DNA of 64,000 nt from a virus, in the IMG/VR virus record IMGVR_UViG_3300025769_000068; one strand, given 5' to 3'. Shown here piece after piece: positions 21,501-56,152 of the stretch. The position numbers and the translations under genes are program-made. Position 1 is the first letter of the stretch. Each line of letters starts with the position of its first letter. Under the pieces are notes generated by a model. The model was not told the origin of the DNA. It was given only the letters and a program-made list of their open reading frames with translations, and ran no database searches.

Positions 21501-24500
21501 AATAATGTTCCATTCAATGTTCCTTTAAATCCTAATACTAATGAATATACTTATAATGCTCAGGAAAATTTAGATTTTCTTGTAGAAGAAAGGCCGTTCG
21601 ATGGCTTGAGCGTTGCTGATCCAAAAGATGAGTTAACATGTATTCCTTACTGGAGACCGGAGTTCTTATATCCCAACAGAAACCAGCATTTGTATGTAAG
21701 ATATCCATTTGGCGACCTTGACCAATCTTCTACCGAACTGCCAAGGTATATGAATGAACTTCGTGCAGATTATCCACTGGCTAAAAAAGCTATACTATCA
21801 CAGATTAATGTTATTGGGTATAATCCGTATGATACTTCAACGAACAATATTCATAAAGACAGTGGGTATTGGCGGCTCGCAGCAATTCAAGATAATGTTT
21901 TCTTTGAAAATGGCGATAACGAGCCACTAACCACGGATCGTACACTAAGTGGATCTTTGGGTTGTATCAGCGTTCAAATGCGTATTGATGAAGGAAATCC
22001 AAATTCTCTTACTGGAATAGGCGAAGAAACACTTGTGTTAGACACTAAAACTACCTCTGGATGGAATCCGGGTACATATAACAGTAGAACTATAGATTAT
22101 AATTATAGACCATATTTTTCTTTCGTTGGATCACTACGAGCGTTGAGTACAAGTAATGATTTTGCAAGCCAGTATACCGAATATGATTCATCACAATCAT
22201 ACCGAACGGGAAAGTTTACAGGGCAATATGGGTTTGGTCGAGTACCCATATATGATTTTACTGATGCTGTCGAAAGTTTTATAGTTCGTACCAAGTCTGA
22301 CACTGGACTTTCAATTGGCGTAGGAACTCACAAATTTATTAATATACCTTACAGATATCCTGTCACCTTTTTAGTTGATGACATAAAAGGTGTTTCAATA
22401 CAAACTTTGAAGGACGAGACCTTTAACGAGTCAGAGTATAAAGAGTCAACTAAAATAGTAAGAGACAGATTTGGAGATACTGATTACACTGAAACTCTTG
22501 ATTTGCGTTATACATATGTTAGTCCAAAAACAGGGCAAATTAAGAAAAAAGATTATTACAGTGGATCATTAATTTTAAAGATAACTCCTGAATATTTTGA
22601 CAATGCTAATAATCCACCCATAGTAATGGTGACTATGAAAAGGTTGGTGACTACGAATGGAAAGTCGTATGACCTTACTCCTGAACCAGTTAATATTTAT
22701 CCTGTAGAAACTTGTGATTCTTCTTTGCTTAAAGCTCATATACTTCCAGATGGCACAACGCTATATGGCACTACCACCACCACCACTACCACCACCACAA
22801 CTACTATACCGCCGGGAGAACCTAATTTTCACTTTGATAGATTTTATGTTAAGAGAAAAGACGATAGGTTTATAGAGGAGGAGATAACGCCTTTTACTCT
22901 TTCGTATTCAGATTATACCACTATAGCCCAAGAGTATCTTTTGCCGTCTAGACCGCCCACTTATGAAGAACTTAGAAATAGTTCTCAAGCAGGAAAAAGA
23001 TATAGAAAAATATCAATAGATTCCGGTGCTAGATTTAGTCAAATTAAGTTAAATGATAGCGGTAATCTATTAATATTTAAAAATAAATTTATAGATGATC
23101 GTACAGCTTTAGGAGACCTTGGAGCATTAAAGACGGGGGTTGGCCTACAGGGTAGAACAGATTTTTCTTTTAGTTATAGTCAGCTTCAAGACGCTGGTGG
23201 AGGTAATCGTCAGTATGGACTCTACACTGATAAAGCTTTAAAAAGTTTTGCTGGTTATGATCGCACAAAACCAAATGACCCCTTACCAACAAACGCACAC
23301 GTTTTCTTTGGAAGAACAAATGATAATTTTGATGAAAATGATATTAACGACTTTGTTATAAATGACAGTGGTAACACATTACTATACAGTCCAAGCGAAG
23401 GTTCATACAAGGGTAATCTTTTACACGGTGTGGCTGATTTTGATTCTACATCTATAAATAACAGTGACGCTTTGTATGAATTGTCGGGAGGAGAGAAAAG
23501 TGTTGCTAAACAAATAAAAAATGCTTATGGAGAAAAAATTAAAAAGTTTTCTTTATCAAAAGATAACAATGTTCTTGCAATAATTCAAGAAAATAGCCAA
23601 TTTTTACAACACGCAAGTCAAAGCATTCTTAGAGGCAGTGCATTTGGTTTTGGTAATGCAACGCAAATTTATCCAACAACGGGAACCTATCCACACAACA
23701 AGCCGGAAAGTTTTTCAAATATATTAGTTTTTGATAGAACTGGCGATAACAATTGGGCTATTCGTAATAGTCGATCATTATCAACTACTTGGGAAATTCC
23801 AATTGGAAAGCCTGAAAGCGTAGCATTTCAAGCATATGAAGATATAAGAATAAACAAGGATGGAACTATAATAGCAGGATTAAGATATGAAAATAATTCT
23901 GCGGTTCCATCAATAAATCTTAGCACGAAACGCCAAGACGGAAATACAAACATATACTATAATAGCTCAAAAGCTTTTGGGTCTAATTTAAATCTATCCG
24001 TTGATGGTGGTTCAGATTTTCAATATAAAAATGGATTTTATATAGATGTTTGGAAGTATAATTCTGGAGACAAAAGATGGGATATGCTTGGCGCTAAAAA
24101 TGTTGGAGGCTTAATAAATGAGCTAAGATATTTTACTAGTGGTGATAAACACTCGATACGATTAACCAACAATGAAACTGCTATCAGTAGAGATTATCAA
24201 GATATTAATTATGAAATAAATCATGAAGGCAATGTTTTAGCTCTCACATACAGAGATAAGAATATTGGTAAATATCATTTTCAACAAATATATGCTTACA
24301 ACGAATCTAAGGATGAGTGGATTAAAACTTTCTCACGAGACAGTAGAGATTCTATTGCACAAACAATTCAACATTTTAATATTATAAATTCATCATCCTA
24401 TACTGAAGACGTAAAAGATAATGCTGGTAATATAGTATATGATCCTAATAAGAATTTTTGTTATTTACACAATAGGGTTGATATAAATAACAGTGGTAAT

Positions 24501-38618: not shown

Positions 38619-41600
38619 ATGTCTAAATTTAATCTCACTGCACAAATACAGTTACAAGCACCTAAAAATGCTGCACAAGTTGTAAACCAAATACAGCGTC
38701 AGTTGCAGAATATTAATGTTAATGTAAACCTCAAAGGCGCTCCACAGGCTCAACGTCAAATACAGAATTTGGCTAAGTCTACAAGTCAAGCTGCTAATGC
38801 TAGCACCAAGCTAGGTAAAGCTTTAACTGCTTCTATCAAAAGATATGCCGGTTTAGCTATTGCTACTAGGGCTGTTAGTTTATTTACTAATACTCTTAGT
38901 AATGCTGTGCAAGAATCTATAGATTTTCAGAGAGAGCTTATAAAGGTGGCTCAAGTTACTGGAAAGTCTTTGCAAGAACTTAAAGGTCTTACTTCTGAAA
39001 TTACTAGGCTATCGACTTCTTTAGGTGCTGCCTCTAGCTCTTTAATTGGAGTTAGTAGGATACTTTCTCAGGCGGGTCTTAGCGCTAATGAAACTAGGAT
39101 AGCTCTTGATGCTTTGGCTCGATCTACTTTAGCTCCTACCTTTGATAACATTACACAAACTGCTGAAGGCGCAGTTGCTATCTTTAATCAGTTTAGAGAA
39201 GGCGCTCAAGCTTTAGAAAAACAGTTGGGTGCTATTAATGCTGTTGCTGGTCAATTCGCTGTTGAGGCGGGTGATTTGATTGCTGTTATTCGTCGTACTG
39301 GAGGTGTGTTTAAATCTGCTGGTGGTGATTTAAATGAACTGATTGCGTTATTTACTAGTGTTAGAGCAACAACGCGAGAGTCAGCAGAAAGTATTGCTAC
39401 TGGTTTACGTACCATCTTTACTAGAATACAAAGACCTAAAACTATAGAATTCTTAAGAGAATTTGGTGTTGAACTTGTAGGTTTGGATGGCAAGTTTGTT
39501 GGTCCGTATGAAGCTGTTAAAAGATTGAGCGCAGCTCTTGCTGGACTTGAACAAGGTGACTTAACATTTATTAAAATTGCTGAAGAACTTGGTGGCTTTA
39601 GACAGATTGGTAAAGTCATTCCTTTAATTCAAGAATTTAGAATAGCTCAAGAAGCATTAAATGTTGCAATTGCTGGTGGTGATTCTCTTACGAAAGATGC
39701 TTTAACAGCACAACAGGCGTTAGCTGTACAGATTGCTAAAGTTAGAGAACAATTTTTAGCATTAATTAGAGGTGTATTTGAAAGTCAATCTTTTCAATTA
39801 TTTGCAAAAACTTCTTTAAACATAGCGTCTGCTTTACTTAAAGTTGGTGAAGCGTTAAAACCACTTATTCCACTGCTTACTACTTTTGCTGCTATAAATA
39901 TTGCCAGAGGTGCTGCTGGACTTATTGGAGGTTTATCTCGCCCAAGAGGATTTAACGCAGGTGGTATGGTTCCCGGTAGTGGTAATAGAGATACAGTCCC
40001 TGCGATGCTTACGCCGGGAGAATTTGTAATACGTAAAAGTAGTGTTGCTAGCATAGGTGCTGAAAATCTTGCGTCTATGAATAAATATGCATACGGTGGA
40101 ACTGTTAAAAGTTTAGGTACAACTTATACTTCTATACCAAGAACTAAAGGTTATGACAAATTACAAAATAGAAGAGTGCAAGATAATTCTAAATTTGTAA
40201 AAGTAATACCTAATGAAAAAGATTTGGACGTATGGAACAATTCAAGATCGTTTAAACATGGAGACAAATTTGAAGAAGTTTTAGCTAAATCACGAAGATT
40301 TAACACTGGACGACGAGCCACGGGGCCATTTGATATTTTAGATTTTCCTCAAACAAGATCTGAAGCTAAATTTTTACCTTTAAATGCAAGGTATGGAAAA
40401 GGAGAAAATGACAGAAACGCAAAGGGTAATACTGGTAAAAGTATTGCTGCTAAGAATTTTCTTTTTGAAAATAGCCGTGGCACGAATAGAAGACCTAGTT
40501 CGTTGTCAACTACTGCTTTAGCTGGAAAACCCGTTACAACCTACTATACAGATCCTAGTCTATGGTTGAAAAAGATGGCTACTGGCGGTGGAGTTTCTGG
40601 AACAGATACAGTTCCAGCGATGTTGACTCCCGGTGAGTTTGTAATGAACAAAGCATCTGCACAAAATATTGGTTACAGTAATTTAAACCGTATGAATAAA
40701 GTTGGTAAGTATGCTAATGGTGGTATAGTTCAAGGATTTAATACTGGTGGAACAATACGTTCGCCTCTTCTTAGTGGGGGAACATCGAAAGGAACTGTTC
40801 CAGTTTCTATACAGTCAGTTTCTAGCGTAGCTGCTTCTATGCTAGGTGGTGGATTGGGCGGTGGGGGTGGCGTTATTGCTAGCGCTGCTAGCGGAGGAGG
40901 TTCTGGCCCAAGAGGTTTAGTCGCTGCAAAAGGAACAAAAAGGGGTAATCTACCATCTAAATCTAGAAGTGTTGATAGCCTTAGTGGTATTGGTTTTGGT
41001 TTAACGGCAGCAACTGCTGCTCTTGCTACTTTCGCTCCGACTGTTGATGAAAATAGTAATGCTCAAGAAAGGGCTATCGCCGCTCTTGCTAATTCTGCCA
41101 CAACATTAGCTGCGACTTTTGGTGGTTTAGCATCTATTAGTGAATCGTTTGGTGTTAGCCTTGGTGATGCTTTTAGAGGCGGTTTAGGTAAAAAAGCTAA
41201 GAACGCCGTTCAAGAAGACATAATAGCAAGAAGTCAAGCCAAAGCGTCTGGTATAAAGCAAAGTGCTAGAGATAGAACTAAAGCTGATATAGAAAGTGGA
41301 CAAATAGATTTAAGCACATCGAAGGGTAGAGAAACAGCAAGAAAAAGAGCAGAAAAAGCTAGAAAAAGTGCGGCGGGAGTTGAAAGGCGTGGACGAGGTT
41401 TTGCAAGGGCGGGTGGATCTGCTGCTCAAGTTGGTACACAGGCTGCTGTAGGCGTTGCTGCTTTTACCGCTGCTTTTAACGCAGCTCAATCCTTAGCTCA
41501 AGTTTTCAAAGAATTAAGTGGTATTACTAAAGAAATGCAAGATGCTATAGAAGACGGTAATGTGGCTTTAGCTGAGAGAAAAGCGGCAGAAGCAAATGCA

Positions 41601-44270
41601 GAGGAAAGAACTTTAAATACAGCGAGTGGTATTGTTGGCGGTGCTGCTGCTGGATTTGCAGTCGCTGGCCCACTTGGTGCTGCTCTTGGCGCTGCTGCTG
41701 GTGGAATTTTAGCAGACTTTTTAACTCCACCAAAAGAAACTGCTGTCGCTTTAGCTGGCGCTCAAGCCGCAGCTACTAAAGCTGCTAAGAGTATGGCAGA
41801 TGCCACAAAAGAAGTTACCAAGAGGATGTCAGAATTTAGACTTGGTAATATTAGTGGGGATGAACTTTTTGAACCTTTAATAAAAGCACAAGAAGATGCT
41901 GCTCTAGCAAGAAGAAAAGGTGCAGCAGCTGAAGGCGAAGCTGCTGATTTTGGTCAAACGCTTCCGGGTGCTATGAGTCAAGCCTTTGGTTTTTCAAAAA
42001 GTTCTGATGCGATTAGAAGAGAAAACGAAGCTGCCCAAAAACAAAGAAGAGAACAAATGAAGGAAACCTCTACCCCAGCTGTACGCGCATTAGCTATGCA
42101 GGCTGCTGGAGGAGGTCAAGATGAACAACAGTTTAGAGAATTTTTACAGAGTACAGGTCTCAGTCTTAAAGATTTAGAAATGGCTGGCGTAAATGTTAAA
42201 GACATATTTGCAAGCGCAGAAAAAGAAGTTGAAAGAGCAAGAAAACAATTTGAATTATTAAATCTTGGTTTAAGTAATGTAAATGCCACAGCTGATGCAA
42301 GCATAGCCGTTTTAAATAACTTGGGGAATATTACAGATCTTGGAGCTAACTCTCAGGTTGAAAATTCTTTAAATACCTTAACTGCTGGTTTAACAGCTGC
42401 TGCTCAGGGTATAGATTTAGCTGATTTCCAGAAAGCGGTAGACACGGGCGTAGGTGTTCTACAGGGCTTAGGAGCTTCAGATGAAAGTATAAATAAATTT
42501 AAAAATACAACACAGGCGATTAATTCTGTACAGTCCGAAATACCAAACGCTTTGGAAAGAGTAAAAAAAACTTTTGATGCTAGCGGTGGAAAGGTAAGTG
42601 TTAAAGATCTTAGGCAGAAATTTGCTGACGAAATATCAGGCTCTTTGAAGGGTGTAGTAGACGAAGACACACTTTCAAATTTGACTGATTTAATTGCAGA
42701 GGGAGAGCTTTCTCCAGAAGATGTTAAAGCAATACAAGGAGGCGATATGTCTCCTCTTCAAAAACTAGTTGATGAGTTTGGTGAAGGGGCGATGAAAGAA
42801 TTTACAGAAGCTTTCAAAAAAGCAGCTGAAATAGAAAATAAACTTGTAGCTATTACTTCACAAAGAATTAATCTAGAAAATCAGTTAGTAGCATCACAGC
42901 AAAAAGTACTATCTGCTCAAATGGAAGCCGCACAGATTATAGCTGAATTTGGTGGCCCTGCGGTAACGCCTGATCAACAGCGAGCTAATATTATACAAAG
43001 TGCTAATACTCAATCTGGAGTTATTGGTGGTATTAGTAATTTACAAAGTGGTAGCGCTGCTGAACTTACAAATCGTAATAGAGAAATTAATGCCCAACTT
43101 CAAAATATAGATACGCAGAGATCAGCTGTTGCTGCTGGAGGCGGTGGTCTTGGCAGAGTCGAAGGTACAGAGTTACAAGCACAGCAAGACAGATTAATTA
43201 AGCTCGCTCAAGATCAATATAATGTTACTAAACAATTAATTGACGTTCGTAAGCAAGAACTTAGAACAATTCAAGCTAGAAATAAAGCAGAAAAAGACGG
43301 CTTGGAATCTCTACTTGATGGTGATTTTGAAGGATTCTTTGATGCTCAAGCAGCTGCTGGCGCTACAGCTGCAATCGCCACGGGCAATACTCAGCTGGCA
43401 TCGGCGTATGGTCCCGGCGGTCTTGCTGGAGCATTTAAAAACTTACAGCAGATGCAATCACAAGGTGTTACAACTGCATTTGGTCAAAACATTGGCGGCG
43501 CAGGAGGATTGCTAGAGCAATCTGCTGGAGCAGCTTTAGGGACATTTGGAATGCAAGGATCAGCAGATGTTCTTGCTGGCACTACACCAGAAGAAGCTGC
43601 CTTGCAGTCAGAAATACAAGGTTTAGCTAAAACGTTGCCAGATACTGCTCAAGTTCAAGCAAATGCTGCTGAAATGATGTTGAAAGCAGCCGTGATACAA
43701 CAACAAGTTGCACAAGCAGAATTAGCTGAAGTAAGAGAAAGGGTTCAAAACCGTGCTGGTGGTGGTTTGATTTATGCTAGCCGTGGAATGTTTGTACCCC
43801 GTGGAACTGACACTGTTCCTGCAATGTTGACTCCGGGTGAGTTTGTAGTTAGACGAGCAGCTGTTCAAAGGGGAAATAATCTTCAAATGCTTAAAGCTAT
43901 GAACAGTGGCGCTGTTAGCGATAGTGCAACACAAGCTTTATCTTCTGGGGGTCAAGTAAGATATTTACAAAACGGCGGTGAAGCTACTGGTGGAGGTCTT
44001 GGCATTAGTTCAGAAACTTTAAACAGTTTTGCATCAGCCCTTAATAACTTTAACACTCAGTTAGCTACTAATATACAAAATCTACAAAATACTCAATTCC
44101 AAATTACTTTAAATCCAGCAAATATAAATGTTAACTTAACTGGCACGTCATTCCTAGAAAAGTTGACATCTACTCTTAAACAAGAGTTGTTTAGCTTTGT
44201 GGGTCAGGAAATTGCTCAACATTCCGTGGGACCAGACGGACGACTAACTAAAGACAACCGAAGGGTATAA
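38619..44270 (+). CDS. Tape measure protein with embedded cargo domain and repeated DTVPAMLTPGEFV modules
   Basis: 1883 aa Ala/Gly/Gln-rich helical ORF. The N-terminal region resembles the TP901-type TMP core (IDFQRELIKVAQVTG...ELIALFTSVRATTRESAESIATGLRTIFTRI). It has a Gly-zipper hydrophobic segment and sits downstream of tube and chaperones. Confidence 0.85.
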   Translation: MSKFNLTAQIQLQAPKNAAQVVNQIQRQLQNINVNVNLKGAPQAQRQIQNLAKSTSQAANASTKLGKALTASIKRYAGLAIATRAVSLFTNTLSNAVQESIDFQRELIKVAQVTGKSLQELKGLTSEITRLSTSLGAASSSLIGVSRILSQAGLSANETRIALDALARSTLAPTFDNITQTAEGAVAIFNQFREGAQALEKQLGAINAVAGQFAVEAGDLIAVIRRTGGVFKSAGGDLNELIALFTSVRATTRESAESIATGLRTIFTRIQRPKTIEFLREFGVELVGLDGKFVGPYEAVKRLSAALAGLEQGDLTFIKIAEELGGFRQIGKVIPLIQEFRIAQEALNVAIAGGDSLTKDALTAQQALAVQIAKVREQFLALIRGVFESQSFQLFAKTSLNIASALLKVGEALKPLIPLLTTFAAINIARGAAGLIGGLSRPRGFNAGGMVPGSGNRDTVPAMLTPGEFVIRKSSVASIGAENLASMNKYAYGGTVKSLGTTYTSIPRTKGYDKLQNRRVQDNSKFVKVIPNEKDLDVWNNSRSFKHGDKFEEVLAKSRRFNTGRRATGPFDILDFPQTRSEAKFLPLNARYGKGENDRNAKGNTGKSIAAKNFLFENSRGTNRRPSSLSTTALAGKPVTTYYTDPSLWLKKMATGGGVSGTDTVPAMLTPGEFVMNKASAQNIGYSNLNRMNKVGKYANGGIVQGFNTGGTIRSPLLSGGTSKGTVPVSIQSVSSVAASMLGGGLGGGGGVIASAASGGGSGPRGLVAAKGTKRGNLPSKSRSVDSLSGIGFGLTAATAALATFAPTVDENSNAQERAIAALANSATTLAATFGGLASISESFGVSLGDAFRGGLGKKAKNAVQEDIIARSQAKASGIKQSARDRTKADIESGQIDLSTSKGRETARKRAEKARKSAAGVERRGRGFARAGGSAAQVGTQAAVGVAAFTAAFNAAQSLAQVFKELSGITKEMQDAIEDGNVALAERKAAEANAEERTLNTASGIVGGAAAGFAVAGPLGAALGAAAGGILADFLTPPKETAVALAGAQAAATKAAKSMADATKEVTKRMSEFRLGNISGDELFEPLIKAQEDAALARRKGAAAEGEAADFGQTLPGAMSQAFGFSKSSDAIRRENEAAQKQRREQMKETSTPAVRALAMQAAGGGQDEQQFREFLQSTGLSLKDLEMAGVNVKDIFASAEKEVERARKQFELLNLGLSNVNATADASIAVLNNLGNITDLGANSQVENSLNTLTAGLTAAAQGIDLADFQKAVDTGVGVLQGLGASDESINKFKNTTQAINSVQSEIPNALERVKKTFDASGGKVSVKDLRQKFADEISGSLKGVVDEDTLSNLTDLIAEGELSPEDVKAIQGGDMSPLQKLVDEFGEGAMKEFTEAFKKAAEIENKLVAITSQRINLENQLVASQQKVLSAQMEAAQIIAEFGGPAVTPDQQRANIIQSANTQSGVIGGISNLQSGSAAELTNRNREINAQLQNIDTQRSAVAAGGGGLGRVEGTELQAQQDRLIKLAQDQYNVTKQLIDVRKQELRTIQARNKAEKDGLESLLDGDFEGFFDAQAAAGATAAIATGNTQLASAYGPGGLAGAFKNLQQMQSQGVTTAFGQNIGGAGGLLEQSAGAALGTFGMQGSADVLAGTTPEEAALQSEIQGLAKTLPDTAQVQANAAEMMLKAAVIQQQVAQAELAEVRERVQNRAGGGLIYASRGMFVPRGTDTVPAMLTPGEFVVRRAAVQRGNNLQMLKAMNSGAVSDSATQALSSGGQVRYLQNGGEATGGGLGISSETLNSFASALNNFNTQLATNIQNLQNTQFQITLNPANINVNLTGTSFLEKLTSTLKQELFSFVGQEIAQHSVGPDGRLTKDNRRV
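39951..43979 (+). repeat. Three protein-level copies of DTVPAMLTPGEFV (39990, 40605, 43809) with flanking [FYML]xxGG motifs
   Basis: The same 13-aa motif is encoded with different synonymous codons in each copy. Flanking motifs: FNAGG, YAYGG, MATGG, YANGG, FNTGG, LSSGG, LQNGG. Confidence 0.9.
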
Positions 44271-44272
44271 GG

Positions 44273-47200
44273 ATGATACAGGATTGTTTTTCACCAAAGG
44301 TAAGCTTTAAAAAAGCGGGAGTTGGAAAACTCAGGCTTGGAGAAAGAGCGGGATTATTACAGGTACGTTGTCAAACTGATGTTAATCTAAAATTTGATAT
44401 AAATTTAAAAGCAGCAAATACTGGCGATAGACTTATTTCATCTAAAATGTTAGGCTTTGCAACACTAAAACAAACAACTACTAGCGATATTAATGTTAAT
44501 AGATATTTTAATCTAGATAATGCTTTTATAACAACTAGATATAAACTTAACCCAGCTAGTATTTTTGCAAGACCTTCTACTTCTGCTTTTGTCTCCGCAA
44601 GGCCACATAAGATTGCAGGGACTCACGACTCTTATCGAGAATTTGACAATTTTGTAGCTACAGAAAAATTATATCCTAGCGGTATTGAAGTTTTTGAAAG
44701 TGGATTTAACAGAATTATTGGAGTGGCATCGTCTATTGATGATGGTGTGCTTATCGGAAATTATCTAAAAAATGGATTACCAAGTTCCCGCGTTACTAGA
44801 GATTCTATATTTTTAAGATCTCAAGAAAGATTTGGAAAACCAAAAGATGATCATAATAATTATAAATTAGTATTAGAGATGGATAAACCTTCTACTGATA
44901 TGCTAGAAAGTTTTTTGGCAATTAGAGTAGATGCTCCTATTGAAAATTTTAGATCTCATAAGCCACTTTCTTATAAATTTAATAATCTAAAGTTTACTGA
45001 TCCGTCTGGAAATTTAATAGTACAATATAAAGACTTCACAGTTAAGGGTGAATCAAAGTATCTATCTACAGTAAACCCAACTACCTATTTAACTGAACCG
45101 CTAATAAATAACGCAAAACTAGATAAGGATGATAGTAATTATCCTCTATTTTTTAATGAAAGTGGTTATTTACTAAATATTGATGTGGAGACTTCCACTT
45201 TAGACGACCCATTTAACGTTGGTTTTAGTAACGCATTTTCTGAAGATAATAGACCAGTTGGTGGTAGAAGAGAAGATTTTAGAATTATCTCACTTGAAAT
45301 ACTATCACAGGGTTTAAGTAATTTTAGAAATGATGCAATACTTCCTTTTTCCGTGCAAGTTCCTGCAACTGGTTTAAGAACAGAAAGAAAAATATTTCCA
45401 TCAAATCTTTTAAAGTATAACTTTGATACAACTATTTATCCTTCTGGAGAACACTCTCTGTGGACAGATAATGGTAATCATACTTTTAACGACGTTGAAG
45501 ATAACAGTCACCTAAGTAATATTTTACGATTAGACGGTAATGACAAATTTATAGAATTATCTTCTACCACGGCTATTGCAGATTCTGGTAAGCTAAAACT
45601 TAAGTTTAGTCATGAGCCTCCGACTTCTGCATTTAGGTATGCAGATGGGGCTTTCCAATTTGCTTTTTCGTCAAATTCCTTTGACGCTGCTAATAAAAGA
45701 CAAGTTTCTGATATAGATTCTTTCTTTGTGGTTGACGAGATAGAGTTAAAGGTTACGGCTAAAAAGTCTGCTTCTAGTAGAGATTATGTAATTGATGCTG
45801 TTGGTTATAGTGATGATAAACTTTTGCATATAACTCCTAAGATTGGTGGATTTTTACAAAACGCTTCAGGCCAACATCCATCTGGAATAGGCGTAACTCC
45901 AGTTTCTTCTGGATTTGCAAATATAAACGACTTAGGAATTTCTACACTACCAATATCAGACAAGTTCTCTTACTTTGAAACTTCTGGTACTAATAACTTA
46001 GGAGGTAATCATTATTCATTACCTTTAACACCAATAGTAAATACAACTGAATTCACAGAGTATACTATACCTTTAGATATTTATCCAGATAATGTTAGAC
46101 TTGGAAAGTCTGTTGATTACTCTATGAGTTCTTACTTTGAACATCTATACTTAGATTTATTCCCATTCCCAAGTGGCGCGGCTATATCTAATATATCTTT
46201 ACTTATTAAGTACAGACCTAGCAACGCTCTTCCACTCCATACTGTTGCGCATGAAAAAGAACCATTACATAAATCTGAAGCTAAGGGGTATCCTTCGTCA
46301 AGTCAAAGCACGGACAGAAAGATAAATTCTGTTATACAAAATTCTGGACTGTCATTAATAGAAAGCATCCCACACGGATATCAAAGTCCAACAACCATTA
46401 AAACAAATTACGCTAGACGTTGGAGGGGTGTAGATGGAAATGTGATGACAGGTCCGTTTCAACCTACTGTCTTTGATTTCTCTTTCGAGAATCCTCAACT
46501 AGATGCGCCGTTCTTAAATGGAACATTTGATTTTACAAAGATAGAAGACGGATTCGTATTACCAAATCAAAGTGGATTATTAGACAACAATGTTAGTGGA
46601 TTTTATAATGCTAGCTTCTCATCTAATCTTATAGAAAATATTGGTTTACGATTTAATAATAGTGGTCTTTTTGTAAATCAACAACGAGATTATAAAACTT
46701 TAGATTGGACACAAACGGGTTCTGAATTAAGTGGTAAAATATTAGACTCTTTCGATAAAGCTTTAAGATTATCTGGACCTGACGCAAACATTAATTTTGG
46801 TAGTGGCATCTCAGTTTCTGGAGGTTTCGCGGCATACATTAGATTTTCTCCTGATGTTTCAATAAGTGGAAGCTCTTATAACCTTTGGGACTCTGGGGTG
46901 CTGCTATCAAAATGGAATCACGGAGAAGAACTAGAATTTCTTTTAGCTTATAGCGGTGGACATTTAGCCGCTCATGCTAGAGATATTGACAATAATACTA
47001 TATCTATATATGATAGTCAAGATTATACTAATTACCAATATCCACTATCTGTATTACTTACATATAATGATAATTTAAGTAGTAGATTAAAGTTATACGT
47101 TGACAGTGAAATAGCTAGCGGAAGTTATGATCTACTTCGAGCATCTTCTACTTCTTTCTTTATGGCATCTGGTAATAGTCCAATTGTAGCTGGTTTCTCT

Positions 47201-50200
47201 TCTGCTTCTGGCGTTGGTACTAATGTATTTGCAACAGACGTTGGTTTATCTTTCCACAATGCCAGCGGATCTAATATAACAGAATCTGGAATTAACTTGG
47301 ACATGAAGCAAACGGAGGTTGAAGGCTTCTTTAGCGGTCATCGTGCAAAATTCTGGAATGCTGGAGAAAGTCATGTTTATGATAGATATAAACTTTGGAG
47401 TTTTGTTGATCAAAATACAAGCAAGTGGAAAATAGGAGAATTTAATTTTTGTATGTTTGATCAAAACTTTAGTAGATTTAGTAAGAGGGTAGGCAGAGAT
47501 TATATTCAATTTAAGCTATCGCATAGTGGATTTCCATATTATCAAACTACAAATTTAGCTTTACCTTCTGGTAGTATACAAACATCTGGATTGGCATATC
47601 ATAGTCAGTTAGAAAATGATATGTTGAGACTTGACATTGGTACTATTCCAGACGGAGATAGTCATAGGCTTTATTCTGCATCTCCTAGAATTTCAAAGAA
47701 TTTCCCAAGAGGTTACAAGTTTGAAGAATCAGCATTTGTTGTAGATACTGTTATTCAAAGTCAAATTGATCAAGAAGTAAATTGGAATGATGGCAATACT
47801 GGACCTAAACTAATTGTAAGTTTATACGCCCCTCAAAAAGACCCAACAACATATGTAGAGTCAAATTTTGGTCTAGTAAATAGACATTATCATTATTTAC
47901 CTTTTAACGGTTGCATGACGAAAATATCTAGTACTTTTGATTATAATGATTGGATAGATAAATCAGAACCTTGGGCAGAGTTTAATTCTAGAACTGCTAG
48001 CACAGAGTTTGACCATAAGTTTTATTCTGACGACATTGATAAGATGTTTATTCAGTATGACATAGCATTTCCTTCTGGTGATAAGTTTACTTCTAACATC
48101 AAACTACATTCAATAAATTTAAATTTAGAAAATGTTTTAGCGTCTGGAGATGCAATTTCTTCTTCTGGCTTTGCGTTGTTTGCCAGCGGGAATACACTAT
48201 CCTCTAACGCCTTAGAATTGTTTGTAGATTCTTTGGTTAATATATCTGGAGCGCAACCTTCTGGATTAACTCTATACAGTTCTGGCGCGGCTATACCAAC
48301 AGTATCTGGAGAATCACCAAGTGGTTTGTTAATGTCTACCCTTGCTTACGATCCTTCTACAGTTAGTCGTGCTTCTGGTATGTACTTATCTTTATTTTCT
48401 TCTGGAGATGCAACAATTGGATTTGATCCAAATTTGATTATTCATGAAGGAATGTATGGTATTGTTAATACTGATTTTAATCCGGTTGTCAATCTCTTTA
48501 CTGAGGGCGGTGCTTTTGGAGTTAAAGTTTTAGATGGCGCTCTTTCCATATCTACCTTTAACGACGGTATTCTAGATTCAACTAGTGGAGATTTGTTCCT
48601 ATTTAATCAATCTGCTGGATTAGCCGATCCAATTTTAGATAGTGGAAGCATAACGATGTTTCTACATGGAGTTCCAGAATTAAATCCATTTATAGAATTG
48701 GTAGATACACTTCCGCTATATTTGGGTGGCGTGGATTTAAACATAACCTCCAGTAGTTCTCTAGACTTACGAATTATAGGACAGCCAATTATTAATGGTA
48801 TTAATAATGATATACATTTATTTACTACAAACTACAATGTTGCTCCGGGTGATTTAGGTCAAGAATTTATAAGCTGGACAAATGTAAATGCTGGCACAGG
48901 AATCTCAACTATTGAAAGTGATTATTCTTACTTAGAATCTAGCGATGAAATTCGCGGTGTAGATTTAACATGCTATGGAGATTGTGAGTCAACGGATGAA
49001 CCTTGTACTGATCCAGAAATTATTATTCATGGAAAGAATTTTGGACAAGATTGTGTTGACGGTGGAATATTTAGAGCTAAAAGATTATATACTAATCTTG
49101 CTACGAGTGGATTTAAAACTGACGTTGGATATAGCGGTAATTACTATGGTATTAGAAAATTTACTGGATTGATTCCTCATGCTCCATATGATATTCAAGT
49201 TTTTGGTAGAACAGCTGGAGAAGAAAGAAAAGAACTTCCAAGATCTTTATCTATTAATTATGGCACTAATGAAAATGTTCATTTTTCAGGTATCAAATTA
49301 ATTGCAGACGGAATACAGGGAGCTAGCGGTAATACTCCACCAAGCTCTACAACTCCAAGAAATGCATTTGATCAGTATGGAAAGTCTGTTTGCGTTGGTA
49401 AAAAGTATATGGTTGTTGGATCTCCTAAACACCATGTTTTTGATTATGACTCTAGAGATCTTGGAGAAGCTGGAACTGTGTTTGTATATGAAAGAAATTC
49501 TGAACCAAGTGGATATGATTGGTCTAATCAAGATGATAAATCTGGTTTTTCTTTTGTTTCTGAGTTAACACTACCAATTGGACTTAAAAGAGATTATGCT
49601 GTAGCCATAACAAGCAAAGACGACCCCCTTCAACCGCAGAGTGATAAAAAGTTACCTTTTCCTACAACTAGAGCTGAGTGGTACAACATAGGAGAAGGTA
49701 GAAATTTTGGATCATCTTTAGATATGTCTAATTCTGGTGAAAGTCCAACCATTGTTGTTGGCGCTCCAAACAGTGTATGGTCAAGAACATTTTCTGATCC
49801 AGTTCCAACTCCCATTGAGGTTGCGCTATTTGTATTCACCAGACCTTTTAAAGAATTTAAAAACGTAAAAAGACAAGGCCGAGAAGCGGAGGAAACTGTG
49901 ATTCCGGGTAAAAAAACGTATCGTGACATTTTACCTAGTATATCAGATGTAAACTTTTTATATAAATATTATTCTAATCCTGCTGTTTCTGTTAACTTAA
50001 AAGTTATTATAGTTGAGCCTAATTTAACCAGCGGTCCAGCTGGAGATCAAGACTTTATTGGTGGAACAGAGGATGTGGCATTTAAGTTTAGTATTTCTAA
50101 CCATGAGAGAGGTAAGTTTAGAGGTCAATCTCATACCACTCAGATGTTTCAACAACTACAAGAAATCTTCCACGGTCCTACAAGTGGGATATATCCACTT

Positions 50201-53200
50201 GATAGTAGCAAGATAAATAGTGGGATACCTGTGATTGTAGGAGCTTTAGTTGATGATAGTTTATCTATGGGTAACGAAACCCTTGGAGAAAATGGAAATG
50301 ACGCTGTAGATCAATTCTTTGATTGGTATAAAGAATACTCATTTGCTAGTGGCGTTACAAACTTTAGTAATGAACCTTCAGCTGGTTCTACTTTTAGAAC
50401 ATCTACTGACTCGGGAGAAGATTGGATAGCACTTTCTATTAATCTTATTAAAACGGTATTTGACACTGGAAGAATGGCTGCAAGTGAAGACTTTAAGTTA
50501 TTTTCAACTAGTGTTGGAACTTTTAATAATAATACTGCTAGATTTAATATGCCACCACCAAGCGGTGGAGCCGTTTTTGTATACGAAGAAGAATTTAATG
50601 ATGGAAAATTAGAATGGAATCCTATTCAAATTATAAATTCTCCAACAAAGTCTAAAGACGTATATGCAGATAGATTTGGTCATGACGTTGCTATTAGTGA
50701 CGACAAATCTACTATAGTTATTGGTTCTCCATACATAGACGAAGCTATAAGTATTTATGAAAGAAATCCATATACTTTTGCTCATGAATATGTGGGCAAT
50801 TGGATAAATAGGGTTGGTCCAAACGATAAACCATTTGGATACTTACGAGATAAGTACAGAAGATTTCAAGAACTTGTTCCAGCATTAGGACGCGGTGAGG
50901 CTCAAAAAGTTTTATTTAATGAGTTAAATGCCAGTGGTAAATTACAACTAAGAATAGATGAGGATATTAAGGCGTATGAATTAAATCAACGTTACACACA
51001 TAGCGAGATGAAACCTACCATTCCCCCAGATTGGGAATTCTTATATAGCAAGTTTGCGCCTACTCCAAGATTGGGTTATTCTGTTGATACTAACTCAGAT
51101 GGCTCTATTATAGCTGCTGGTGCGCCAACTGACAGCGTGCTAAATGAGGATAATGAATTCGTTGTATGGTGGAGACCGGGAGCCACACACACAAGTCAAT
51201 GGTTTTCAACCACAAATGCTGGATCTGTCACTGTGCTTGAGGGTAAAAAGTATTATGTTCATAAAAATAAAGCTGTAGAATATACTAGACTTGGTAATAA
51301 ACATAGAATATTAAATGAAGAAGAGCAGGGTGCGGGTTTATTTGATCACATGACAGCTATTTATAGAGATGCTGGTATTGATTTTTCTATACTGCCAAAT
51401 GACGAAGTAGATATTCCAAATGATGCAGGGTTGATGTTTATGATTACGCCAGCCATAGATGGTTTAAGCGATGAAATTGTAGAAAATATTCAAAATTGGT
51501 TAGGTCTTGGAGATAGACATTTAGTACTAGTTTCAGATGATCCAGTTTATGAAAATAGTGGAGTTTATGGAACTACCAATAATATTGTTAATGAATTGCT
51601 TACAAGGCTTGATTCTAGAATTGAAGTTGTGCCAGCTAGGTCTGAATATGAATCACTAGTTGGATCTAACAGAAGAGATAATAGTCCATTTAATGAAATG
51701 GATCTTAATATAATACCATCATTTATTCCCGGTGGAACAACGTCATTCAGCTATCCCGGTATCAAGGAGAATAGCTTCAGTGGATTACGTGGATCTGGAG
51801 TTGCTGACATTAAGTTAAATTTCCCCGGTATTTATTCAGCTTATCATTGCGGCGAAAGAAGAAACAATCTTTTTGAAACAGATTTAGCTGGAAATGAAAC
51901 AGGAGCTTTCCCATCATATCAAGAACTGAACGACAGGTGCGAAATGATTCCTCAACATGGGGGAGATCTTAGAGCAGAATGGATTGATTTTTGTGAAAAT
52001 CCAATAGGATTAGGTATTATAACATTCCCAGTAAACTTGGCGATGGCATTTGGTACTCAAACAGAAGTAACCGTTGGTTGCTGTATAGAAGATTGCCCAC
52101 CACCACCTACGGGACTCCCAAATAGGGAACCCATACCGCTACTAGTAGCGAATGAACATAGTCTAGAAGAGAAAATTATACCAGCTATTCCAGAAAGAAT
52201 TAAAGAAGTTGAGGTTGTTGTTGGATTTGAGACAAAAACAGGAGGGCCGTTCTTTTCAAAAGATTGTTTTGAAGAAGCACAGTTTTACTGGACAGCGGAC
52301 AGTAATAATTATAAAGGCTTGAATACTAACCTTGGTTTTACGTCAAGTCCTAGCAAGTATATTACAGACAACGAACTTGTAGCATCTAGAAGAAGTATTC
52401 TTAGATCTAAATCTCATTCTGAAGGCCAAGTTATAAATGAAAGAAATCCAATAGATCATTTTAATATTATCTCTAAAGAAAAATATAAAGATACAACATC
52501 TGAAGTATACATAATTAGTAATACTGACATGGAGCTTAGAGAATTTTTATTAAATTCAGAAGTTGACGATAAAAATCTTTTAATATATAGATCCATATTA
52601 AAATCTGTTAATAATAGCGATGAGTTTTTGACAAGAATAGCACAGCTGGGTGGGTGGACAAATAGGACAGCATTTAAAGATGGTCGTGAAGATTCTTACC
52701 TAGAAGAACTACTTGGTTTCTTGCCACCAGATGTAGCTTACAATGTAGATGATTTAGAAAATCATATTTTAACTAGTACTTATGACGCTGCGTGGATTGC
52801 CAATACTGACCAAATCATACCAAGTGATGACTTAAATGTATTGAAAGCTTGGCTATCACGGGGCGATAGAAAGTTATTTATAACTTGCGGTAGAAAAGAT
52901 TCCTCTAGTGATAATCAAACAATTACAGATCAAGGCATTCCATTAGAAAATGTAGAAGCTTTAGAGTCTTTAGCTGCTGGCTTAGAATTGAATATGAGGC
53001 CATTAAGACTGCCAGTAAAAAACAAAGTAGCTTCTATGATAGATTTCTTTCCAGACATTGAAGCAAGATTTGAAACATTTGGAGAATTAAATGATCAAAT
53101 GAGAGATTTTGGTTTTGGTCAAGAAGATTTCAATGCTGGGGCTTCAGCTACATTTGCAATTCCTGCATTTAATTCTTTATCAATATCTGGTGGCGAAAGA

Positions 53201-56152
53201 ATATTTGGCACTAATGATTCTGGCTCAACAAGACCGGCTCGACGCGCAAACAAATTAACTGATGATAAGTTCATAATTGTTGGTGTTCCTTACTTCAAAA
53301 CAGGCGTAACAAAAGTAACGTTCCCAGTTCTTCCGGGTTCAGGATATAGAGTATTTTTTGATACAATGTCCGCAACTCCAGATGAAAAATCTTCATTTGA
53401 ATATACTTTTTCAAATTGTAATAAAAAGGCCGGGGTGTTATCTAGTGGTACGTTAAAGAATATTGAAGATATAATTCACATGCCTAGTGATGAAAGTCAT
53501 AACAAAGTTAAATCCATTGATAAAGCTTTTGTTGGATTTGAGTTAGCTAAAGACGATAAGGGAGGTTCAAGATTAGATGCAGAAAATGGTGAAAAACTAA
53601 ACCCCTTCGAGTTCAACTATAAAGGCGATGTAAATACTGAAAGCATAAATCTTTATGTACCTAGTGGTGACGGTAAAGACCATGACAATGTTAATACGAT
53701 TGATGAAATTAGTATATACATAAATTCTAATTATATTAATTATCCAACTGGTGACTATGACAAATTACCCAAAACGCAAAGATTAATTGGTATATCTGGA
53801 TGTTTAGTTCCTTTCAGTTTTGAAGATGAACTAGTACCAGTGATGGGTATTCAAGAAGAAGTTATTCCAGCAGTTCCAGAACAAAGATTAATGATTCAAG
53901 AGACAAGACCTATTAGTACAAGCAGTCACAAGTACTGCCCTACTGATGAATGCAAAGAAATATTTACTAGTAGAGATCCTACTAATGTAATTGCAGACGG
54001 TCCAGTTGTTGCAGCTCAAGAAATTTATTTCCAAAAGCCATTTGATGTTGGCATGAACAGATCTAGAATTACAGTGCTTACAGACGCAAGTATGATACAG
54101 GGTCGTAGAATTGCAGACGAGGGCGGTGTAATTGATGAAAATGTTATAAGATTTTTACAAACCCTATATCCAACTACTTTTTTCCCCAAACAAATAGATG
54201 AGCTGTTGGACGATGAAGACATGGAAAGAGAATTTAAAGTCTATGACGTTATTACTAAAATTACTGCACCAGTTAAAGGTAGTCCTCAAAAGTTCTTTAA
54301 TTCTACTGGAAACTCTGGACAAATGATTAGATTTGCTGGAGATGGAACTCCTGCAACATCTGGTAGAGCTATGACTTTCTTCTCTGATGATGTAGATCCA
54401 ACCACTATTAATAATCATGGCTTTTTAAAATCACCTCTTCCAATGCAGATTGGAAAGGGCGCTCAAAAATTAACACCAAGAGATCCTCCATATCCAAATG
54501 AAGAGCAAGTTGATCAAATGAAACTAGGTGCAATTGAAGCATTCTCGTCTGCTCAGTATAGTTACGGTGGAACTGCTAAGTTTAGTGGAGTCATAGATGG
54601 AAAAATGTATCAAGATGCATATTACGGAGAGTTTCCACAAATTATTGGGGAAAAAGGCTATGACTATTTAGACTTTGATAAATTACCTTCTGGATATCCG
54701 GGTGATTTATTTGGTTATTCAGTTGCAATACAAGATAAAACTATTGCCATTGGTTCGCCCTTTGCGGCTTTCTCGTCAGAAACTCCTACTACTTGGTCTT
54801 ATGTTTCTGGGGTTACTGTTAAAAATGAACAAGCCTCTGGAACAGTGCTTGGTTATGGCGGTGGTGCTGGATCTGTATTCCTTTACGGAAAGGGTGAACG
54901 CACTCTTTCAGAGTATGGTGTTGTCGGAGGATTTAAAGGTTGGGAACTCCTTAAGAAATTTAGACCTCAAAGTATTAATGTTGGTCAAAACTTATGCTTA
55001 AACGGAATAAATGAAACTGCAATTTCACAAAATGTAACTAGACTTGGACCTAATAATTATAAAATAGCTGACCTTAGAGATAACTCTTTTGTTACGGATC
55101 AGTTTGGAGCTTCCGTTGATATTCACAGCGACACGATTGTAATAGGTGCGCCGGGACATGATTTCCCCAGCTTAGAACAAATGGAATTTGAAAGGGGTGG
55201 AGAAGCTAGCGGTGCATTTAATTATAAAGAATTTAATGTATCAATAGATATTCCTTTAAGAACTGTTTATGATGTGGGTGAGTCTGGTTTAAGACATCAA
55301 CTTAGCTTAAGCGGTAGTGGAACAACCGCTGTGCTAAATAATGGTGCGGCTTACGTTTACGAAATTATAAATGATGATTGGGAAGAAAGAACCAAGAGTT
55401 TTTCTTTTGTTCAAAAAATTGTACCAAAGGGTTATTTCTCCAGAGTACAAAAAGATTACGAAGGGATGCTAGTAGAAACTGCTGTTAGTGGTTCTGAAAA
55501 TGATTACTACGGCAGATCTGTTTCTGTTTATCAAGCCAATAGAGCAGATAGTAATTATAGTATAGCCGTTGGCGCTCCTGCTCATATGTGCGCCACTAGC
55601 GGAGATCACTCTTCGTTTGCTTCTGGGGTTAATACTGGAGCTGTTTACATATCTGATGGAATGCTAAGAAAACCTAGTTCTACTCTACCAAGTCCAGATG
55701 CTTCTATTTTTGCTACAGTTTACGCAAATTCTGGAATTGATAGATCTGATCCAAATGGAGATTATATATCATTACACTTTACAAATAATGGTGTTTATGA
55801 TCATATATTTAAATCTAATGGTAGATTATATACTAATGAAGATGGAGAGATATTCTTAGAGGCTTCTGGTCGAGATCCCGCAGATAGAAGCTTTACCGCC
55901 CATAGACCTTTAATACAAGAAATTACTGGAAAGTACGTACATGGAACTCCAGAAAAAAACTCAATTAGATTATTTGCTAGTGGTCAGGGTCCAATGGTTA
56001 GTGGGTCTTTACCTCTTTATAATCAGGCTAAAGGCTCGGCAATCGTGTATAATAATTTAGGATTATATGCTAGTGCTTCGACGGGCAGTATTTCAGGCGT
56101 TTTTGAAGGTTCTGGTTTGACGCTATATTCTTCAGGCGTACTTGGTTCATAG
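44273..56152 (+). CDS. Giant (3959 aa) tail-tip/adhesin protein with LamG-like domain, FG-GAP beta-propeller and inserted alpha/beta domains; Ser-Gly rich
   Basis: LamG-like region at about 46770-47240 (GGFAAYIRFSP...LLSKW...LKLYVD). FG-GAP repeats YGKSVCV..MVVGSP, FGSSLDM..IVVGAP, FGHDVAI..IVIGSP, LGYSVD..IAAGAP, FGYSVAI..IAIGSP, FGASVDI..IVIGAP and YGRSVSV..IAVGAP. Confidence 0.7.
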   Translation: MIQDCFSPKVSFKKAGVGKLRLGERAGLLQVRCQTDVNLKFDINLKAANTGDRLISSKMLGFATLKQTTTSDINVNRYFNLDNAFITTRYKLNPASIFARPSTSAFVSARPHKIAGTHDSYREFDNFVATEKLYPSGIEVFESGFNRIIGVASSIDDGVLIGNYLKNGLPSSRVTRDSIFLRSQERFGKPKDDHNNYKLVLEMDKPSTDMLESFLAIRVDAPIENFRSHKPLSYKFNNLKFTDPSGNLIVQYKDFTVKGESKYLSTVNPTTYLTEPLINNAKLDKDDSNYPLFFNESGYLLNIDVETSTLDDPFNVGFSNAFSEDNRPVGGRREDFRIISLEILSQGLSNFRNDAILPFSVQVPATGLRTERKIFPSNLLKYNFDTTIYPSGEHSLWTDNGNHTFNDVEDNSHLSNILRLDGNDKFIELSSTTAIADSGKLKLKFSHEPPTSAFRYADGAFQFAFSSNSFDAANKRQVSDIDSFFVVDEIELKVTAKKSASSRDYVIDAVGYSDDKLLHITPKIGGFLQNASGQHPSGIGVTPVSSGFANINDLGISTLPISDKFSYFETSGTNNLGGNHYSLPLTPIVNTTEFTEYTIPLDIYPDNVRLGKSVDYSMSSYFEHLYLDLFPFPSGAAISNISLLIKYRPSNALPLHTVAHEKEPLHKSEAKGYPSSSQSTDRKINSVIQNSGLSLIESIPHGYQSPTTIKTNYARRWRGVDGNVMTGPFQPTVFDFSFENPQLDAPFLNGTFDFTKIEDGFVLPNQSGLLDNNVSGFYNASFSSNLIENIGLRFNNSGLFVNQQRDYKTLDWTQTGSELSGKILDSFDKALRLSGPDANINFGSGISVSGGFAAYIRFSPDVSISGSSYNLWDSGVLLSKWNHGEELEFLLAYSGGHLAAHARDIDNNTISIYDSQDYTNYQYPLSVLLTYNDNLSSRLKLYVDSEIASGSYDLLRASSTSFFMASGNSPIVAGFSSASGVGTNVFATDVGLSFHNASGSNITESGINLDMKQTEVEGFFSGHRAKFWNAGESHVYDRYKLWSFVDQNTSKWKIGEFNFCMFDQNFSRFSKRVGRDYIQFKLSHSGFPYYQTTNLALPSGSIQTSGLAYHSQLENDMLRLDIGTIPDGDSHRLYSASPRISKNFPRGYKFEESAFVVDTVIQSQIDQEVNWNDGNTGPKLIVSLYAPQKDPTTYVESNFGLVNRHYHYLPFNGCMTKISSTFDYNDWIDKSEPWAEFNSRTASTEFDHKFYSDDIDKMFIQYDIAFPSGDKFTSNIKLHSINLNLENVLASGDAISSSGFALFASGNTLSSNALELFVDSLVNISGAQPSGLTLYSSGAAIPTVSGESPSGLLMSTLAYDPSTVSRASGMYLSLFSSGDATIGFDPNLIIHEGMYGIVNTDFNPVVNLFTEGGAFGVKVLDGALSISTFNDGILDSTSGDLFLFNQSAGLADPILDSGSITMFLHGVPELNPFIELVDTLPLYLGGVDLNITSSSSLDLRIIGQPIINGINNDIHLFTTNYNVAPGDLGQEFISWTNVNAGTGISTIESDYSYLESSDEIRGVDLTCYGDCESTDEPCTDPEIIIHGKNFGQDCVDGGIFRAKRLYTNLATSGFKTDVGYSGNYYGIRKFTGLIPHAPYDIQVFGRTAGEERKELPRSLSINYGTNENVHFSGIKLIADGIQGASGNTPPSSTTPRNAFDQYGKSVCVGKKYMVVGSPKHHVFDYDSRDLGEAGTVFVYERNSEPSGYDWSNQDDKSGFSFVSELTLPIGLKRDYAVAITSKDDPLQPQSDKKLPFPTTRAEWYNIGEGRNFGSSLDMSNSGESPTIVVGAPNSVWSRTFSDPVPTPIEVALFVFTRPFKEFKNVKRQGREAEETVIPGKKTYRDILPSISDVNFLYKYYSNPAVSVNLKVIIVEPNLTSGPAGDQDFIGGTEDVAFKFSISNHERGKFRGQSHTTQMFQQLQEIFHGPTSGIYPLDSSKINSGIPVIVGALVDDSLSMGNETLGENGNDAVDQFFDWYKEYSFASGVTNFSNEPSAGSTFRTSTDSGEDWIALSINLIKTVFDTGRMAASEDFKLFSTSVGTFNNNTARFNMPPPSGGAVFVYEEEFNDGKLEWNPIQIINSPTKSKDVYADRFGHDVAISDDKSTIVIGSPYIDEAISIYERNPYTFAHEYVGNWINRVGPNDKPFGYLRDKYRRFQELVPALGRGEAQKVLFNELNASGKLQLRIDEDIKAYELNQRYTHSEMKPTIPPDWEFLYSKFAPTPRLGYSVDTNSDGSIIAAGAPTDSVLNEDNEFVVWWRPGATHTSQWFSTTNAGSVTVLEGKKYYVHKNKAVEYTRLGNKHRILNEEEQGAGLFDHMTAIYRDAGIDFSILPNDEVDIPNDAGLMFMITPAIDGLSDEIVENIQNWLGLGDRHLVLVSDDPVYENSGVYGTTNNIVNELLTRLDSRIEVVPARSEYESLVGSNRRDNSPFNEMDLNIIPSFIPGGTTSFSYPGIKENSFSGLRGSGVADIKLNFPGIYSAYHCGERRNNLFETDLAGNETGAFPSYQELNDRCEMIPQHGGDLRAEWIDFCENPIGLGIITFPVNLAMAFGTQTEVTVGCCIEDCPPPPTGLPNREPIPLLVANEHSLEEKIIPAIPERIKEVEVVVGFETKTGGPFFSKDCFEEAQFYWTADSNNYKGLNTNLGFTSSPSKYITDNELVASRRSILRSKSHSEGQVINERNPIDHFNIISKEKYKDTTSEVYIISNTDMELREFLLNSEVDDKNLLIYRSILKSVNNSDEFLTRIAQLGGWTNRTAFKDGREDSYLEELLGFLPPDVAYNVDDLENHILTSTYDAAWIANTDQIIPSDDLNVLKAWLSRGDRKLFITCGRKDSSSDNQTITDQGIPLENVEALESLAAGLELNMRPLRLPVKNKVASMIDFFPDIEARFETFGELNDQMRDFGFGQEDFNAGASATFAIPAFNSLSISGGERIFGTNDSGSTRPARRANKLTDDKFIIVGVPYFKTGVTKVTFPVLPGSGYRVFFDTMSATPDEKSSFEYTFSNCNKKAGVLSSGTLKNIEDIIHMPSDESHNKVKSIDKAFVGFELAKDDKGGSRLDAENGEKLNPFEFNYKGDVNTESINLYVPSGDGKDHDNVNTIDEISIYINSNYINYPTGDYDKLPKTQRLIGISGCLVPFSFEDELVPVMGIQEEVIPAVPEQRLMIQETRPISTSSHKYCPTDECKEIFTSRDPTNVIADGPVVAAQEIYFQKPFDVGMNRSRITVLTDASMIQGRRIADEGGVIDENVIRFLQTLYPTTFFPKQIDELLDDEDMEREFKVYDVITKITAPVKGSPQKFFNSTGNSGQMIRFAGDGTPATSGRAMTFFSDDVDPTTINNHGFLKSPLPMQIGKGAQKLTPRDPPYPNEEQVDQMKLGAIEAFSSAQYSYGGTAKFSGVIDGKMYQDAYYGEFPQIIGEKGYDYLDFDKLPSGYPGDLFGYSVAIQDKTIAIGSPFAAFSSETPTTWSYVSGVTVKNEQASGTVLGYGGGAGSVFLYGKGERTLSEYGVVGGFKGWELLKKFRPQSINVGQNLCLNGINETAISQNVTRLGPNNYKIADLRDNSFVTDQFGASVDIHSDTIVIGAPGHDFPSLEQMEFERGGEASGAFNYKEFNVSIDIPLRTVYDVGESGLRHQLSLSGSGTTAVLNNGAAYVYEIINDDWEERTKSFSFVQKIVPKGYFSRVQKDYEGMLVETAVSGSENDYYGRSVSVYQANRADSNYSIAVGAPAHMCATSGDHSSFASGVNTGAVYISDGMLRKPSSTLPSPDASIFATVYANSGIDRSDPNGDYISLHFTNNGVYDHIFKSNGRLYTNEDGEIFLEASGRDPADRSFTAHRPLIQEITGKYVHGTPEKNSIRLFASGQGPMVSGSLPLYNQAKGSAIVYNNLGLYASASTGSISGVFEGSGLTLYSSGVLGS

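Follow-up and report, generated by a model that had tools for sequence, protein, structure and literature searches.

The window analyzed here is a 64,000-nucleotide stretch of DNA from an uncultured aquatic phage (positions 25340-89339 of the 119,874-bp IMG/VR virus record IMGVR_UViG_3300025769_000068; G+C ∼36%), and the subject of this study is a nuclease-like domain contained in the tape measure protein (TMP) that it encodes. The TMP gene (P0001) is a stop-free open frame on the + strand at positions 38619-44270 and specifies 1,883 amino acids, with full-length homologues of 1,821-2,529 residues. An initial annotation of this DNA had called the gene a TMP, and we agree: the protein contains a PF10145 (PhageMin_Tail) core at residues 128-312 (39000-39554, + strand; Pfam E 1.1e-18), matches the PHROG tape-measure families phrog_4211 and phrog_28, is of great length, lies in the tail gene block, and has hydrophobic segments. 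The nuclease-like domain spans residues 495-652 (158 residues; 40101-40574, + strand), as supported by AlphaFold2, homologues, and structural search. The strings by which it had been singled out, HGDKFEEVLAKS from H547 (nt 40257), FDILDF from F571 (nt 40329), and SEAKF at S581-F585 (nt 40359-40373), were located where they had been reported.

AlphaFold2 predictions on a 19-sequence alignment of the domain yielded a model with a mean predicted local distance difference test (pLDDT) score of 94.2 and a predicted template modeling (pTM) score of 0.88. When a 276-residue construct with both flanks was modeled, residues ∼490-651 reached pLDDT values of 84-97, while the flanks stayed below 50. Since the domain is confidently folded while its flanks are not, we placed the folded unit at residues ∼490-651, matching the boundaries of 495-652 proposed earlier. 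According to these models, the region is an autonomous, independently folding domain. A phmmer search of 1.84 billion representative proteins retrieved 14 relatives (E 2e-36 to 3e-4), all of them inside long TMP-like proteins of 985-5,953 residues, except for one 302-residue fragment. No credible stand-alone form was found in our searches, which gave just a 146-residue piece on a 2.7-kb contig; the domain is confined to TMPs. When 50,697 phage records were queried with the domain by tblastn, only chance matches appeared, megablast with the TMP gene found no close cultured relative, and neither the domain nor a prophage copy was found in 185,579 species genomes.

To see which residues the family retains, we compared 18-19 homologues at 32-94% identity and found 16 of the 158 columns to be invariant: L5, F57, E58, D81, P83, E88, K90, F91, Y98, G109, A116, K118, S125, N129, Y148, and P152 in domain numbering, where E58, D81, E88, and K90 correspond to TMP residues E552, D575, E582, and K584. 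The candidate catalytic residues of the initial annotation (the Glu of FEE, the Asp of LDF, and the Glu and Lys of EAK) are all among these columns. The family consensus reads kFE..l....y.lG......f..LDFP..RsEAKF ... KGN....iAAKNfLfENS. Mapped onto the model and the + strand, the candidate motif I Glu (E552; codon 40272-40274), invariant in 19 sequences, lies on helix α1 (DSSP helix 53-63), and the candidate motif II Asp (D575, in LDFP; codon 40341-40343) is followed by a near-invariant Phe and an invariant Pro, with a β-bridge at residue 82. The candidate motif III (D/E)xK is formed by E582-A583-K584 (domain residues 88-90; 40362-40370), whose Glu and Lys are invariant and which sits on a strand (DSSP 87-90). 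A candidate motif IV is provided by the helix IAAKNFLFENS at residues ∼606-619 (40434-40475; DSSP helix 112-124), with invariant A610, K612, and S619 (A116, K118, and S125), and the final strand of the domain model spans residues 146-149. This order of Glu, Asp, ExK, and helix is the order of PD-(D/E)xK motifs I-IV, although the Pro comes after the motif II Asp, whereas it precedes it in canonical PD-(D/E)xK enzymes. Chance could yield a loose E...D...ExK pattern but not its conservation, so we took the pattern as real. The initial annotation had also described the domain as Lys/Arg-rich. This holds for the window copy (net charge +16, isoelectric point 10.3) and was rejected as a family trait, since net charge runs from −4 to +17 among homologues.

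To compare folds, we used both sequence-based and structure-based searches. Neither the domain nor a wider construct nor any of nine family members had a Pfam match at E ≤10; PHROGs gave only noise for the domain itself; and the PDB, searched by sequence and by profile, yielded nothing beyond coiled-coil noise. The ESM Atlas search with the window domain showed low recognition (1185) and no usable match, and Foldseek against PDB and BFVD found no match with E <0.3. Exhaustive VIA-align searches with two models returned lists in which ∼39 of 43 and 36 of 39 rows, judged by entry titles, were proteins of the restriction-endonuclease fold, each with a weak individual Z. These included FAN1, VRR_NUC, Hjc, NucS, NgoMIV, BspD6I, PspGI, Ecl18kI, MspI, FokI, and SgrAI, together with Vsr, lambda-type exonucleases, Card1, Can1/2, NucC, DdmD, and CdiA-CT, as well as the cap-snatching endonucleases (PA/L-protein) of influenza viruses, bunyaviruses, and arenaviruses and tRNA-splicing endonuclease subunits. 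The best structural matches were Hjc (1gef, 2wcw), VRR-NUC (4qbo, 4qbn), FAN1 (8s5a, 5y7g), and the C-terminal domain of NucS/EndoMS (2vld). As in these minimal PD-(D/E)xK nucleases, the domain has a Glu in the first helix, then an Asp, a (D/E)xK in the next strand, and a helix and last strand, and alignments to the minimal enzymes begin at the Glu-bearing helix. In Hjc, motifs I-IV are represented by E9, D33, E46/K48, and D61 (PMC1913061). Our Hjc alignment pairs model residues 50..155 with 1gef residues 1..86; by range, E58 falls near Hjc E9 and D81 near D33, and the set E9/D33/E46,K48 maps onto E58/D81/E88,K90. The fold proposed by the initial annotation is favored by the placement of motifs I-III in the expected elements and by the dominance of restriction-endonuclease-fold rows, while Foldseek and Pfam provided no match.

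Taking the motifs and the match lists together, we regard the domain as most probably a far-diverged protein of the restriction-endonuclease fold; in predicted structure it resembles nucleases only. Because no significant match was obtained to VRR_NUC PF08774, Hjc PF01870, Mrr_cat PF04471, NucS PF01939, or other clan profiles, we filed it as a new family; in our judgment it founds a previously undescribed family of PD-(D/E)xK type. An hhalign comparison of the family with Escherichia coli MutH, which has the same D-x6-E-x-K spacing, left the motifs unaligned. PF08774 was not found across the 119.9-kb record, nor was VRR_NUC found in E. coli K-12. The set of E552, D575, and E582/K584, joined by the conserved Lys/Asn helix, points to a divalent-metal-dependent phosphodiesterase, and from this we infer both catalysis and a nucleic-acid target. 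That the enzyme is directed at RNA (host mRNA, tRNA, or defense RNA) instead of DNA could be suggested by the cap-snatching enzymes of bunyaviruses, arenaviruses, and influenza viruses and by the tRNA-splicing endonuclease subunits, whose matches have Z values as weak as those of the DNases; we consider this very unlikely to be the correct account, as DNases make up most of the structural matches.

Comparison of closely related TMP genes suggested that the domain has a history of its own. Between the window and a metagenome relative (L010), the DNA of the TMP gene is ∼93% identical on both sides of the domain and only 57-80% identical over 40071-40584. Against the same relative, the domain has a synonymous divergence (dS) of 0.76, compared with 0.16-0.25 for the flanks, and a ratio of nonsynonymous to synonymous divergence (dN/dS) of 0.37. 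The higher dS implies that the domain segment is older than its surroundings, and the dN/dS implies purifying selection; an older segment under purifying selection indicates that recombination, and not positive selection acting locally, exchanged it. Diversifying selection in place was considered and rejected, because dS is raised along with dN and dN/dS is 0.37. The mosaic is also seen at the protein level: for one relative (P0005), flank identity is 91-96% but domain identity 65%, and for another (P0003), the flanks match at 89-92% and the domain at 99%. By these sequence comparisons, the domain behaves as a swapped cassette.

We then considered what occupies the same slot in related phages. 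The N-terminal 440 residues of the TMP retrieve 69 IMG/VR loci at 37-96% identity, and in nearly all of them the first copy of a flanking motif (described below) lies at residues ∼460-475 and a second copy follows 200-540 residues on. A hidden Markov model of the window domain matches just 5 of the 69 loci, and Pfam recognizes none of the other slot inserts. A signature of G..[FYWL]E followed by hD[h] and [DE]x[KR] occurs in 33 of 43 unique inserts, compared with 0.6% of shuffled inserts. For the main insert class, an alignment of 28 cores with identity down to 16% retains invariant G, E, D, K, and K within G..FE / FDFP / (D/E)AK / K..N. Members of this class (L019-L085; for instance L019:7903-8295, L024:7891-8277, and L085:7522-8025) have no Pfam or PDB match. 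When the window family was compared with the main class by hhalign, KFE...LDFP was placed on lFE...FDFP with a probability of 0.8%, so common ancestry of the two is not demonstrated. In one slot variant (L020:7513-8241 and L068:7486-8235) the Lys of the (D/E)xK is replaced, PTDATRT standing in place of xDAKRT; it could be that this form is inactive or that its Lys has migrated.

A different kind of insert was seen in two loci (L018:7483-7953 and L065) whose TMP is 75% identical to that of the window at the N terminus and carries the flanking motifs at residues 458 and 661. Here the slot holds a 157-residue insert with the pattern DGDTF...FRPAGYDAYE...GRYL, for which 28 of 30 named ESM Atlas matches are SNase (PF00565) clusters (score 0.91, recognition 2911). 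Since Pfam is silent on this SNase-like insert, we treat it as a lead and not as proof. SNase cuts both DNA and RNA, and the insert therefore does not discriminate between substrates. That several independent nuclease-type signatures appear in one slot is the strongest circumstantial argument for nucleic-acid cleavage as the function of the slot, which we regard as a putative variable nuclease cargo slot of these TMPs.

These inserts also bear on the possibility that the domain is not of nuclease type and instead has a structural role inside the tail, whether by spacing, by plugging, or by binding the tail tube, a chaperone, or the terminator. Its conserved acidic and basic residues would then pair in salt bridges or hold a structural metal, and the likeness to restriction endonucleases would reflect a common α/β arrangement. 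We find this highly improbable: with either of two independent models, a single superfamily fills nearly all of the weak match list, the residues that stay invariant are precisely the E/D/ExK set, located in the expected elements, and unrelated-looking slot inserts repeat the signature, one of them being SNase-like, whereas a mere spacer would not keep such a pattern. A broader proposal can be put forward with less than even confidence. Uncultured aquatic phages of a large clade, represented by at least 69 IMG/VR loci and by metagenome contigs, may use a fixed TMP slot directly after a conserved DxVPAxLxxGE module as an exchangeable bay for nucleases of several classes and even of different folds, comprising several mutually unrecognizable PD-(D/E)xK-type families and an SNase-like domain, swapped by recombination in the manner of polymorphic toxin tips and injected before the genome against host or rival nucleic acids or defense. 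The presence of interchangeable nuclease-like modules between DxVPAxLxxGE modules suggests selection for changing specificity or for escape from inhibitors or sensors.

The modules on either side of the domain were located by regular expression, which found three copies of the DTVPAMLTPGEFV motif in the TMP, starting at residues 458, 663, and 1731. The upstream module (residues 446-494; 39954-40100, + strand) contains copy 1 at residues 458-470 (nt 39990-40028), has invariant G/V/P/D/E columns, and is predicted to be disordered as a monomer. The downstream module (residues 653-702; 40575-40724, + strand) contains copy 2 at residues 663-675 (nt 40605-40643) and has pLDDT <50. In the window phage and close relatives both modules bracket the domain, an arrangement that would suit a polyprotein model, compatible with a TMP-borne nuclease, in which proteolysis at the DTVPAMLTPGEFV modules frees the domain from the TMP as an effector; TMPs are also often fragmented in virions (80alpha paper). 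We nonetheless judge such release to be unlikely. Many homologues have the domain but no downstream copy (P0009-P0012, P0014, L001, L003, L004, and L013), and no protease or cleavage signature was found. Moreover, the module is a general TMP element, widespread among phages of Actinobacteria, Proteobacteria, and cyanobacteria (125 phage records), with examples in Gordonia, Mycobacterium, Achromobacter, Ralstonia, Synechococcus, and Pelagibacter phages, and it is also present in TMPs that lack the nuclease-like domain.

TMPs are expelled during infection and are thought to build the entry channel. Downstream of the domain, the window TMP has Gly/Ala-rich hydrophobic segments at residues 787-810, 942-961, and 1001-1038 (40977-41732, + strand; Kyte-Doolittle windows ≥1.3), which are candidates for its membrane-inserting part. 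The segments resemble glycine-zipper membrane segments. According to the 80alpha paper, TMP C termini lie at the baseplate and N termini at the neck beside the DNA end. Three copies of the domain per virion would be held in the head-proximal third of the tail lumen. The TMP would exit C terminus first, and the hydrophobic Gly/Ala segments would form a conduit through the envelope. As the domain is N-terminal to the hydrophobic segments (residues 787-1038), its exit from the tail would come late, immediately before that of the DNA, and the N-terminal third of the TMP, including the domain, would reach the cytoplasmic side just before the DNA. There the domain would refold and, using a divalent metal, cut nucleic acid, the candidate targets being the host chromosome, RNA, rival or defense-related nucleic acid, or the phage's own ends.

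The same geometry is relevant to a further alternative, namely a nuclease-derived fold that does not cut and instead serves as a pilot or anchor bound to nucleic acid or to the leading DNA end, or tethers the end of the phage DNA to the TMP, both in the tail and at entry. The PD-(D/E)xK superfamily is known to include inactive derivatives, the window copy has a strong basic charge, and some slot variants replace the Lys (DATR in L020/L068). The N-terminal end of the 80alpha TMP, in addition, adjoins the tail completion protein and the DNA end. However, the four catalytic-type residues never vary although most of the surface does, homologues do not share the basic charge, and the domain lies ∼500 residues from the N terminus, away from the DNA-contacting tip; we therefore consider the non-cutting account unlikely. 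Taken together, we favor with moderate confidence the interpretation that residues 495-652 adopt a PD-(D/E)xK fold, form a new, TMP-only family with a full catalytic-type set, and act as a metal-dependent phosphodiesterase on nucleic acid that is delivered at infection. These phages thus probably deliver a ready-made nucleic-acid-cutting enzyme along with their DNA. The initial annotation had envisaged an injected nuclease or nucleic-acid-binding protein acting at entry, and this is partly supported: the TMP-borne nuclease-like domain is borne out, and its action at entry is inferred from where it resides.

TMPs are known to carry cell-wall hydrolases, so TMP-embedded enzymes are of a known kind; the restriction-endonuclease-type TMP module and its recombining slot appear to be the new element, and in the literature searched we found no description of such a module in a phage TMP or of a slot exchanging such modules. 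The TMP-embedded hydrolases (e.g. SPbeta YomI, annotated as transglycosylase/TMP) likewise are enzymatic cargo in a TMP and are expelled at infection, but they target peptidoglycan, whereas the window domain has a nuclease-type fold and active-site signature. A closer likeness in position is offered by gp96 of Thermus phage P23-45, whose TMP-fused N-terminal virion RNA polymerase transcribes incoming DNA (PMC10770324). It too is a nucleic-acid enzyme in the N-terminal part of a TMP, thought to be active at the entry pore as the genome enters; it is, however, a huge multi-domain polymerase with experimentally established activity, while the window domain is a 158-residue cassette of predicted activity. 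In Tme of the Streptomyces davawensis contractile injection system, a TMP-related effector, endonuclease activity accounts for the effect (PMC11126660). Tme is likewise a TMP-like protein bearing an endonuclease domain, but that domain is a C-terminal EndA-like DRGH/H-N-N (ββα-Me) nuclease, unrelated in fold to PD-(D/E)xK, and the system is bacterial rather than a phage. Lastly, polymorphic toxins (CdiA-CT, Rhs) share the layout of a conserved demarcating motif followed by a highly variable, recombining nuclease-type module. PD-(D/E)xK toxin domains occur among them, and CdiA-CT EC869 (4g6u) is one of our weak structural matches. The TMP module differs in being internal rather than C-terminal, in having no immunity gene identified, and in being carried by a virion protein, and the analogy would be one of function and not of homology. 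If the domain is active, a pre-made nuclease enters the cell before any phage gene is expressed, which would provide a route to immediate host shut-off, nucleotide scavenging, competitor exclusion, or counter-defense. Because they are exchanged, the cassettes also provide a naturally occurring collection of diverse small nuclease-like domains, all with a single delivery context.

Contigs with close TMP relatives (L086-L105) have been binned to Verrucomicrobiales, SAR202, Flavobacteriales, Saccharibacteria, Woesebacteria, Thermoplasmatales, and others, and the TMP N terminus matched only contigs of metagenome-assembled genomes assigned to unrelated phyla. Because these bins span unrelated phyla, we read them as mis-binned phage DNA, unfit for host inference, and rejected a host assignment on this basis. 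Elsewhere in the TMP, the third DTVPAMLTPGEFV motif lies near the C terminus (residues 1731-1743; 43809-43847, + strand), and the full module pattern GG..G..DTVPAMLTPGEFV...N.Y..GG occurs in three copies (39954-40100, 40575-40724, and 43779-43900). Small ORFs (open reading frames) precede the TMP gene, and a 3,959-residue ORF (44273-56152) follows directly downstream; it is one of three giant ORFs within a run of + strand ORFs in the structural region, the others being at 7456-18528 (3,690 residues) and 18528-27017 (2,829 residues).
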